DNA of 64,000 nt from Escherichia coli (GTDB lineage Bacteria > Pseudomonadota > Gammaproteobacteria > Enterobacterales > Enterobacteriaceae): the NCBI RefSeq assembly GCF_003334335.1, contig NZ_QOWQ01000028.1; one strand, written 5' to 3'. Of this stretch, positions 33,001 to 36,000 are shown piece after piece. A program made the position numbers. Position 1 is the first letter of the stretch. Each line of letters begins with the position of its first letter.

Positions 33001-36000
33001 AGGATTTTTTGCTGGTTGCCACCGGATAATGTCCGTGCAGCTTGTTCCGGTTGGTTGAATTTAATATTCAGCGCCCGACGATAACGTTCCAGGGTGGCAT
33101 TATCTTTCGCGGTTTTCGCCCAGAATCCACGAAGGTTATGAGTAAGGGCGCAGACGTTCCAGGCCAGCGAAGCATCGAGATTCAGTCCGGATGACTGGCG
33201 ATCTTCCGGCAGATAAACCAGACCGCGCAGTAAACGTTCTCCAGTGGATAATTTATTGATCTCTTTACCATTCAGCATAATGCGTCCGCCACGCAAAGTA
33301 CGCAGACCATAGAGCGTCTCGGCCAGTTCTGTGCGTCCGGCCCCCACCAGCCCAGCCAGGCCCAGAATTTCTCCGGCATTGAGCGTCAGGCTGACATTCC
33401 TGAAACCTTCGCCGGTCAGATTTTCCAGTGTCAGCACCGGCGTTCCGGCGGCATGTTGTGGGCGGTTACCAGGTAACTCCAGCCATAATTTTTGGCTGGC
33501 AGAGAGCGATTTTTCCCGTACCGCTGGGGTGATGGCCTGAATAATGTCGTCGGTAGACAGTTCGCTGGTTTTGCCGCTTAAGGCGATGGTTCCGTCGCGC
33601 ATCACGCTAATTCGATCGGCAATCTGGCGAATTTCCGGCAGCTTATGCGAGATAAAAACAATACCCACGCCAGTAGCAAGCAGCTCTTGCAAGCGACTAA
33701 ACAAGCGTTCGGTTTCCGCAGGGGTAAGCGAGGCGGTAGGTTCATCGAGGATCAGAATCCGCGAGTCGCGCATCAGCCCGCGGAGGATTTCCACCATTTG
33801 GCGATCGGCGACATCCAGCGATCCTGCCAGACTATGCAGATCAAACTGGCAGCCCAGCGCCGCCAGCAAGTTCTTCATTTTCTGCATGGAGAGCTGTTTT
33901 TTTGCCAGCCCAAACAGGATGTTTTCTTTTATCGACAGGCTTGGGAAAAGCAGCGGTTCCTGGGGAACGAGATAAATACCCAGCTGATGAGCATGAACTG
34001 GCGTTAATCTGACGTAGTTGTTGCCCTCAATCTCCAGCGTACCGCTATCAGCAGGGGTAATACCGGCAATAATCTTCATTAACGTCGATTTACCGGCACC
34101 ATTGCCGCCGAGCAGGGCGTGGACCTCCCCCTGATGCAACGTAAAATCGATGCCTTTCAGGACATTGACCCCTGAATACTGTTTATAAACCGAGCGGGCG
34201 CAAAGTAGCGGTAACGCGCGGGTATCACTCGTTTGCATATTTCCCCCGTTCAGTTTTGCAGGTGAGTTTTGAACAAATGTATTTCTGCTTTTAATTTGTT
34301 CATAACCTTAGGTGGACATTGCACATATTTCCGACGAATAGATCACAATTTATGCTATTTTGATTTTCACGGTTGCGTTTGTTCATGCTCGTAGAGTCAA
34401 ACTGTGGTTGCCATCACAGATATAAATGAGCAAGAACTGAACAATTGCATTAAAGATTTAAATATGTTCAAAGTGAAGAATGAATTATGACAATCAACGA
34501 TTCGGCAATTTCAGAACAGGGAATGTGTGAAGAAGAACAGGTCGCGCGGATCGCGTGGTTTTACTATCACGACGGGCTGACCCAGAGCGAGATCAGCGAT
34601 CGTCTCGGCCTGACACGTTTGAAAGTGTCGCGATTGCTGGAGAAAGGGCATCAGTCCGGCATTATTCGCGTACAGATTAATTCTCGCTTTGAAGGCTGTC
34701 TGGAATATGAAACTCAATTACGTCGTCAGTTTTCGCTGCAACATGTCCGGGTGATCCCTGGGCTTGCGGATGCTGATGTCGGTGGGCGACTGGGGATAGG
34801 CGCGGCGCATATGTTGATGAGTTTACTTCAACCACAACAGATGCTGGCGATTGGTTTTGGCGAGGCAACCATGAATACGCTGCAACGCTTAAGTGGTTTT
34901 ATTTCGTCACAGCAAATTCGCCTGGTCACGCTCTCCGGTGGCGTCGGTTCTTATATGACGGGAATCGGGCAGCTTAACGCGGCGTGCAGTGTGAATATTA
35001 TTCCGGCTCCGTTGCGGGCATCCTCCGCTGACATTGCCCGTACGCTAAAAAATGAAAATTGCGTCAAAGATGTTCTGTTAGCCGCGCAAGCAGCGGATGT
35101 GGCGATTGTCGGCATTGGTGCTGTGAGTCAACAGGACGATGCGACAATCATTCGCTCCGGTTATATCAGCCAGGGCGAACAGTTAATGATTGGCCGAAAA
35201 GGGGCGGTTGGCGACATTTTAGGCTACTTTTTTGATGCAAAAGGTGACGTTGTCACGAATATCAAAATACATAACGAACTGATTGGCTTACCTTTAAGCG
35301 CGCTGAAGACCATACCCGTCCGGGTTGGCGTGGCAGGGGGAGAAAATAAAGCCGAAGCAATTGCCGCTGCAATGAAAGGCGGTTATATCAACGCACTGGT
35401 TACCGATCAGGACACAGCAGCGGCGATTTTACGTAGTTAAATTTGCATGACCTTATTACCGGGAATGATGGAGAACGTATAGAGGAACAGACAGAACGCA
35501 TAAGCCGAGGATAATCTAATGGCTCGACTCTTTACCCTTTCAGAATCAAAGTACTACCTGATGGCGCTGGATGCAGGCACCGGAAGTATTCGGGCTGTGA
35601 TATTCGACCTGGAAGGCAATCAAATAGCAGTGGGACAGGCGGAGTGGCGGCATCTGGCAGTACCGGACGTTCCTGGTTCTATGGAATTTGATCTCAACAA
35701 AAACTGGCAACTGGCGTGTGAGTGTATGCGCCAGGCGCTGCACAACGCCGGCATAGCCCCGGAGTATATCGCTGCCGTTTCGGCATGTTCGATGCGTGAA
35801 GGCATTGTTTTATATAATAATGAAGGAGCCCCGATCTGGGCCTGCGCCAATGTGGATGCCAGAGCGGCACGCGAAGTTAGCGAACTTAAAGAACTGCACA
35901 ACAATACCTTTGAAAACGAAGTTTATCGCGCGACCGGACAAACACTGGCTTTAAGTGCCATCCCCAGATTACTTTGGCTGGCGCACCATCGTTCCGATAT

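Follow-up and report, generated by a model that had tools for sequence, protein, structure and literature searches.

The analyzed stretch, hereafter the window, comprises 64,000 nucleotides of one strand of an Escherichia coli contig (NZ_QOWQ01000028.1), and it aligns in reverse orientation with positions 1571726-1635073 of E. coli K-12 MG1655 at 99.874% identity. Within it lies the lsr locus, in which two divergent transcription units, lsrRK and lsrACDBFG(-tam), are separated by a 248-bp gap between the start codon of lsrA (34238, minus strand) and that of lsrR (34487, plus strand). LsrA, LsrC, LsrD, LsrB, LsrR, and LsrK all scored far above the curated NCBIfam equivalog cut-offs, and the span from lsrC to tam (27624..32709) is collinear with the K-12 annotation, with 99.87% identity and zero indels. 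The gene identities were observed directly, and all nine genes of the locus, including full-length lsrF, lsrG, and tam, were found intact, as an earlier note on this DNA had stated. The same note had described the gap (34239-34486) as the divergent control region of lsrA and lsrR; its boundaries proved exact, and its sequence is 100% identical to MG1655 1601242-1601489, where a K-12 coordinate equals 1635728 minus the window coordinate. The flanking genes and the order of the regulatory boxes are also the same as in the K-12 lsrR-lsrA region. Among 5426 complete E. coli genomes, 4179 carry this intergenic region, almost without exception with at least 95% identity. The coordinates of the genes and of the regulatory features discussed below are collected in Table 1.

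Table 1. Genes and regulatory features of the lsr locus (window coordinates).
Feature	Position	Strand	Sequence	Remarks
tam	27624-28382	-		full-length ORF, collinear with K-12
lsrG	28439-28729	-		full-length ORF, collinear with K-12
lsrF	28753-29628	-		full-length ORF, collinear with K-12
lsrB	29655-30677	-		full length; NCBIfam equivalog
lsrD	30689-31681	-		full length; NCBIfam equivalog
lsrC	31681-32709	-		full length; NCBIfam equivalog
lsrA	32703-34238	-		AI-2 ABC transporter ATPase; first gene of lsrACDBFG-tam; NCBIfam NF011967, 958 bits (cut-off 586)
O_A, predicted LsrR operator	34270-34302		TGAACAAATGTATTTCTGCTTTTAATTTGTTCA	lsrA side
lsrA -10 hexamer, putative	34305-34310	-	TAAGGT	TAnnnT invariant; predicts a start near 34298
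CRPI, predicted weak second CRP site	34332-34347	-	TGTGATCTATTCGTCG (lsrA strand)	center 34339.5
O3, candidate third, weak LsrR operator	34351-34387			between CRPI and CRPII; binding predicted
CRPII, predicted strong cAMP-CRP site	34403-34418		TGTGGTTGCCATCACA	center 34410.5; K-12 1601310-1601325
O_R, predicted LsrR operator	34438-34470		TGAACAATTGCATTAAAGATTTAAATATGTTCA	contains the published p-lsrR-box (AACAAT ... AAGATTTAA)
lsrR -10 hexamer, putative	34440-34445	+	AACAAT	predicts a start near 34452
lsrR	34487-35440	+		SorC/DeoR-family repressor; NCBIfam NF011947, 619 bits (cut-off 486)
lsrK	35519-37111	+		AI-2 kinase; NCBIfam NF008187, 1001 bits (cut-off 528)

The gap contains TGTGGTTGCCATCACA, which the earlier note had reported as a near-perfect CRP palindrome at 34404-34419. 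The motif is present, one base to the left of that position, and its likeness to the CRP consensus is borne out, since 9 of its 10 half-site positions agree with TGTGA-N6-TCACA (14 of 22 positions when the surrounding sequence is compared with the 22-bp consensus). The claim of near-perfect palindromy does not hold in the same way. Only the 5-bp arms CTGTG/CACAG of the inverted repeat are self-complementary, and for this reason "near-consensus CRP site" is the better description, although we retain "palindrome" below as a short name. Matches to the CRP consensus with at most one mismatch are not rare in the window as a whole, with 6 observed against 2.44 expected from shuffled sequences, and a reader could take the frequency of about 2.4 such matches per 64 kb as grounds for regarding this one as accidental. 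Within 248 bp, the chance expectation for a match of this quality is ∼0.01.

To place the motif in a comparative setting, 25 orthologs of the lsrA-lsrR region were retrieved from other species, and both start codons were located in each. The divergent arrangement of lsrA and lsrR and a gap of ∼249 bp are conserved in these regions. An alignment was then made from 15 non-redundant regions representing at least eight genera, drawn from Escherichia, Citrobacter, Izhakiella, Kluyvera, UBA5654 (an uncultured enterobacterium), Superficieibacter, Serratia, Mangrovibacter, and Edwardsiella. The palindrome occupies a fixed position across the aligned regions, and its half-sites TGTGG and TCACA are nearly invariant, including an invariant G at the fifth base of the left half-site where the consensus has A. 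Mean column identity was 0.95 and 1.0 in the two half-sites, compared to 0.43 in the 6-bp spacer and 0.40 in the left flank (n = 15). A CRP site should show just this pattern, with both 5-bp half-sites conserved and the 6 bp between them neutral. Because it is the half-sites and not the spacer that are conserved across genera, a chance origin is excluded. The sequence of the motif, its non-chance nature, and its pattern of conservation are direct observations of this analysis.

The same pattern bears on whether the palindrome might belong to another regulator. CytR has been speculated to act in this region (PMC5137460), and FNR can be considered as well. However, CytR was proposed to act elsewhere, at TGTGCAAT (34318-34325), and the only CytR-like letters in the palindrome (GTTGCC) fall in its spacer, which is not conserved; FNR is disfavored because the palindrome does not fit TTGAT-N4-ATCAA. 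With a fixed position and invariant half-sites in at least eight genera and a spacer that varies freely, the reading of the motif as an accidental match or as the site of another regulator is effectively refuted by conservation, and we give it almost no weight. The earlier identification of the motif as a CRP site is upheld by its 9/10 half-site match, by the conservation of its half-sites around a free spacer, and by its rank as the best CRP match in an independent FIMO scan.

Previous work on the region has also dealt with CRP. Wang 2005, as cited by others, reportedly demonstrated CRP binding by EMSA. Purified cAMP-CRP was used in genomic SELEX, and lsrA was among the targets recovered (PMC3105977). 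More recently, a CRP weight matrix was run over 19,795 genomes (2026 bioRxiv preprint, 10.64898/2026.06.09.730415), and Table S4 of that preprint gives these very two CRP sequences, the palindrome and the weaker CRPI, for E. coli. In every E. coli row examined, the palindrome was the top FIMO match for CRP, with a score of 14.5-16.9 and a p-value of about 1e-6, and CRPI scored 10.5 (p = 3.8e-5). According to the same preprint, lsrACDBFG and lsrR are both CRP-activated, the activity of Plsr depends on crp, and deletion of crp abolishes its sugar control (10.64898/2026.06.09.730415). A published map orders the published boxes as p-lsrR-box, CRPII, CRPI, and p-lsrA-box (PMC5137460, Fig. 2 legend); it locates the p-lsrR-box (AACAAT ... 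AAGATTTAA) between -237 and -197 relative to the lsrA start codon (window 34435-34475), and it describes an up-mutation in TGTGCAAT as lying "very close to CRPI" (PMC5137460). Judged by the box order in the legend and by these distances, not by printed coordinates, the palindrome is most likely the published CRPII box. A full-text search of the literature with the sequences of the sites returned no match, and a search for the promoter names lsrAp and lsrRp returned nothing useful.

TGTGGTTGCCATCACA is the already catalogued main CRP site of the lsr control region and is not new, and the confirmed finding is an ordinary one because the region is well studied. The earlier note had itself rated the system as well described and of low interest, and we agree. 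CRP control of lsr is textbook-level knowledge, so its confirmation adds no new biology.

The second CRP site, CRPI, differs from the palindrome in both quality and placement. It matches the CRP consensus at 6 of 10 half-site positions, versus 9 of 10 for the palindrome, and in the 15-region alignment only its GTGATC half is conserved (GATCAC is invariant), with the other half variable. Located 71 bp from the palindrome, CRPI is the CRP site nearest the lsrA promoter, and the palindrome adjoins the LsrR box on the lsrR side. An alternative view is that CRPI alone is relevant for lsr activation, with the palindrome being strong but secondary or redundant. Such a view draws on the invariance of the GATCAC half across genera, on the proximity of CRPI to lsrA, and on other lineages. 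Salmonella, Klebsiella, and Yersinia were absent from the set of loci collected by peptide pattern and were compared through rows of Table S4 of the preprint. In those rows, the one Salmonella enterica genome examined has only a weak CRPI-like match, without a CRPII-like match, and in Yersinia and some Serratia the strongest CRP match is at the CRPI position (10.64898/2026.06.09.730415). In Buttiauxella, where LsrR is 64% identical, both LsrR operators described below (O_A and O_R) and the CRPI half-site are kept, CRPII is degenerate, and the candidate operator O3 is missing.

However, the palindrome is much nearer to consensus than CRPI in Escherichia, Citrobacter, and related genera (9/10 versus 6/10; FIMO 16.9 versus 10.5), and it is under clear purifying selection that is confined to its half-sites. 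In addition, CRP also activates lsrR, for which CRPI would be badly placed at ∼-112. We therefore consider it improbable that CRPI acts by itself, and the existence of this second site does not displace the palindrome as a CRP site. Since the palindrome is lacking in the one Salmonella genome examined and degenerate in Buttiauxella, and since lsr reportedly depends on CRP throughout the enterics, not every lineage needs the palindrome for CRP control. The patterns in Salmonella, Yersinia, Serratia, and Buttiauxella indicate instead that the strong palindrome is a trait of the Escherichia/Citrobacter-related group and is not universal.

The intergenic region was scanned for sigma-70 promoters and terminators. 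No terminator was detected, and no consensus sigma-70 promoter either, the latter being in keeping with promoters that depend on an activator. No Rfam family matched within the lsrA-lsrR region when the whole window was scanned. Small intergenic ORFs (≤41 aa) were considered as coding sequences and rejected, as they cross non-conserved columns. On the lsrA side, T-12, A-11, and T-7 of the putative -10 hexamer TAAGGT are invariant in 15 of 15 sequences and its three middle bases are variable. The distance from the center of CRPI to the TAnnnT invariants is 29.5 bp, the AACAAT hexamer on the lsrR side lies equally far from the center of CRPII, and a G occupies the predicted -33 position directly after both CRP 16-mers. 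AACAAT is also invariant in the aligned sequences, yet it lies within O_R, and for this reason its invariance is uninformative about a -10 role. Each predicted start is located within a conserved element of 33 bp, that of lsrA in O_A and that of lsrR in O_R.

We infer the start sites, the promoter class, and the assignment of each site to its promoter from this geometry. The palindrome would be centered at ∼-41.5 of the lsrR start as a class II site, and CRPI at ∼-41.5 of the lsrA start; relative to the lsrA promoter the palindrome would then lie near -112.5, and it could lend help from upstream. Known class II promoters of the galP1 type, with CRP at -41.5, resemble both predicted lsr promoters in having a weak or absent -35 element and a -10 of the TAnnnT type that follows the CRP center at 29.5 bp. 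Tandem-site class III promoters offer another parallel, since lsr likewise has a second CRP site 71 bp upstream; this spacing misses the ideal helical phase by 1-2 bp, and the class given to lsr is a predicted one.

A real CRP site might instead work from a class I position. The canonical lac-type position of CRP is -61.5, and the palindrome would lie at ∼-61.5 of lsrR if TGAACA (34438-34443) served as the -35 and AAATAT (34460-34465) as the -10. It would lie at ∼-60.5 of an upstream lsrA promoter composed, on the minus strand, of TGAACA (34385->34380) as the -35 and CAAAAT (34362->34357) as the -10. Both hexamer pairs exist with spacers of 16-17 bp, and the TGAACA elements are conserved. The -10 elements fare less well, as AAATAT becomes CGATAT in Citrobacter and Izhakiella, with loss of A-11, and CAAAAT is conserved only in part. 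Furthermore, with an lsrA start near 34350, the conserved half-site of CRPI would fall at ∼+10, a senseless position for an activator, and the invariant TAnnnT would be left unexplained. The class I arrangement thus seems unlikely, although it deserves more weight than activation through CRPI alone. The upstream lsrA promoter, in which a half-site of O3 doubles as the -35, is kept as a minor rival only.

The form TGAACA-N21-TGTTCA occurs twice in the 64-kb window, as O_A and O_R, compared to an expectation of 0.04 occurrences. The two are 33-nt direct repeats of one another with 76% identity (O_A was also recovered as inverted repeat I2), and both halves of each are invariant in the 15-region alignment. 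Both carry the paired TTGAACA/TGTTCAA signatures of a DeoR-type operator. LsrR is a SorC/DeoR-family tetramer, as is Bacillus subtilis DeoR, and its second NCBIfam match is the Bacillus DeoR model; this family relationship, together with the likeness to the B. subtilis DeoR operator (ATTGAACAAAATTTCAATTACCAATTTACATATGTTCAA), leads us to read O_A and O_R as LsrR operators. The DeoR operator has the outer TTGAACA and TGTTCAA signatures in common with O_R, and 15 of 18 right-hand bases are identical. The two differ in the start-to-start distance of the outer signatures (27 bp in O_R versus 30 bp in the DeoR operator), in the effector (phospho-AI-2 for LsrR, deoxyribose-5-phosphate for DeoR), and in placement, with the lsr operators overlapping the predicted -10/+1 and the DeoR operator spanning -60 to -21.

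The LsrR boxes published previously (AAAACT and AAAACTGAA; AACAAT and AAGATTTAA) coincide only partly with the 33-bp operators. O_R covers both p-lsrR-box motifs, and the p-lsrA-box repeats (34248-34271) abut or overlap only the left edge of O_A.

Between CRPI and CRPII, the comparison suggests a third, weak LsrR operator, O3. Its right half, a fifth predicted half-operator of sequence TTGTTCAT (34379-34386), keeps the core GTTCA invariant within an otherwise variable stretch, with alignment columns G143, T145, C146, and A147 unchanged. A good left half (34352-34359) is present in Serratia, UBA5654, and Edwardsiella, but that of E. coli is degenerate; in the former three a position weight matrix built from canonical LsrR half-sites found the partner at the canonical 25-nt offset. 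Repeats D3, I3, and I6 from the repeat analysis of the region also support O3. The centers of the three elements (34286, 34369, and 34454) are 83 and 85 bp apart, or ∼8 helical turns, and LsrR half-operators flank the CRP palindrome at -28 and +30 bp. No published counterpart of O3 was found in the literature. The DeoR-like LsrR operators, TGAACA-N21-TGTTCA, with the weaker third one, may be the one new element of this region, although O3 or the operator map may already be present in curated regulon databases.

In comparison with the K-12 literature, the proposal replaces short AT-rich boxes with 33-bp TGAACA-N21-TGTTCA operators and adds a candidate third operator. That LsrR recognizes DeoR-like 33-bp operators (TTGAACAA-N19-TTGTTCAA) in place of short AT-rich boxes, and three of them instead of two, is a tentative idea, which we would not yet favor over the published view. 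If it is true, LsrR could form a phased higher-order complex with DNA, enclosing the CRP sites in a loop or a wrap, and such a complex would explain how mutations in the box on the lsrR side relieve repression of the lsrA promoter at a distance of 150 bp (PMC5137460). An arrangement of this kind would recall the CytR/CRP complexes of deoP2, cdd, and udp, in which the repressor sits between two CRP dimers, as candidate O3 does between the CRP sites of lsr; in both systems a pathway-specific repressor is integrated with CRP at one promoter region. In contrast, the CRP sites are 71 bp apart at lsr and about 52-53 bp apart at deoP2, and O3 is only a candidate element.

Taken as a whole, the 248-bp gap very probably works as a shared control region for lsrRK and lsrACDBFG-tam, with TGTGGTTGCCATCACA as its strongest CRP site. 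In the absence of preferred sugars, cAMP-CRP would bind the palindrome and the weaker CRPI half-site, and would activate both of the weak, back-to-back promoters. The LsrR tetramer, bound to the DeoR-like operators O_R and O_A, would overlap the promoter cores and repress both, until phospho-AI-2, made by LsrK, released it from the operators. CRP dependence, repression by LsrR, and induction by phospho-AI-2 are taken from the literature and not from this analysis, including the role of phospho-AI-2 in LsrR release (PMC5137460).

Because of its CRP site, AI-2 uptake in E. coli, and hence the "quenching" of the quorum signal, is conditional on carbon supply. The comparative map may be of use in giving coordinates for both CRP sites, the DeoR-like operators, and a possible third operator, along with predictions of start sites. 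Synthetic-biology circuits make use of the lsr promoter, and recent papers give LsrR recognition motifs that disagree with one another.

One minor observation concerns the up-mutations in TGTGCAAT, for which a role of CytR had been considered (PMC5137460). We set this idea aside in favor of a simpler reading, in which the changes TGCAAT->TACAAT and TGCAAT->TGTAAT each bring the sequence nearer to TATAAT. Neither the CytR reading nor the TATAAT reading bears on the palindrome.

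Two conserved 33-bp elements of the form TGAACA-N21-TGTTCA, located at 34270-34302 and 34438-34470 in the control region between the divergent lsrA and lsrR genes, are read as operators for LsrR. These elements resemble the DeoR operator of B. subtilis, and overlap only partially with the short, AT-rich boxes described in the LsrR literature. Judging from its sequence, the segment at 34351-34387, which lies between both CRP sites, is a candidate third LsrR operator; within it, GTTCA at 34381-34385 is invariant, and when the candidate is included, operator centres are spaced 83 and 85 bp apart, corresponding to ∼8 helical turns. 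Conservation of the AAAACT repeats (34248-34271) does not extend beyond Escherichia.

In a published study of the lsr promoter (PMC5137460), two up-mutations were described in the minus-strand hexamer at 34318-34323 (TGCAAT to TACAAT and TGCAAT to TGTAAT), and a CytR site was proposed to account for them. Both mutations shift the hexamer toward the -10 consensus TATAAT, and gain of -10 likeness would explain the up-mutations more simply than a CytR site.

At base 5 (34407) of the left CRP half-site of the lsr palindrome (TGTGG), where the consensus has A, each of the 15 aligned species carries G. The whole window contains six matches to the CRP consensus with one mismatch, compared to 2.4 expected, and five of these are outside the lsr region. 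STnc560 and IS009 were the only Rfam matches in the window, and are tabulated with the CRP-consensus matches.

Rfam matches and one-mismatch CRP-consensus matches outside the lsr region
Feature	Coordinates	Location
STnc560 (Rfam)	12780-12993	Over MgrR sRNA locus, adjoining mgtS/dgcZ
IS009 (Rfam)	1187-1385	Within Qin prophage remnant
CRP-consensus match	6600-6615	Upstream of ydfZ
CRP-consensus match	15586-15601	Within marB
CRP-consensus match	26654-26669	37-52 nt upstream of yneE
CRP-consensus matches (two)	52907-52922, 53121-53136	ydeO-ydeN intergenic region

The lsr control region had no match in 1247 of the 5426 complete E. coli genomes. Three matches were plasmid-borne, and in one of the genomes listed, all that is left of the region is 49 bp, which the annotation assigns to an autotransporter gene.

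No alignment to K-12 was obtained for bases 1-655 of the window. The window showed 80 differences relative to K-12, of which 58 lay within the first 4 kb, at the Qin prophage tail-fibre/pinQ end. The stretch at 1-4000 matched other natural isolates of E. coli at 100% identity. The differences at the Qin end, together with this identity, therefore indicate that the source strain is a close relative of K-12, not K-12 itself.

The autotransporter gene yneO (ECSE_1600 family; 37642-43061) is a pseudogene, broken into two ORFs of 1302 and 516 aa. Compared with the K-12 yneO pseudogene, the window copy carries two extra 1-bp deletions, at 41479 and 41602, whereas in strain 300709 the ECSE_1600-family autotransporter is intact (1806 aa).
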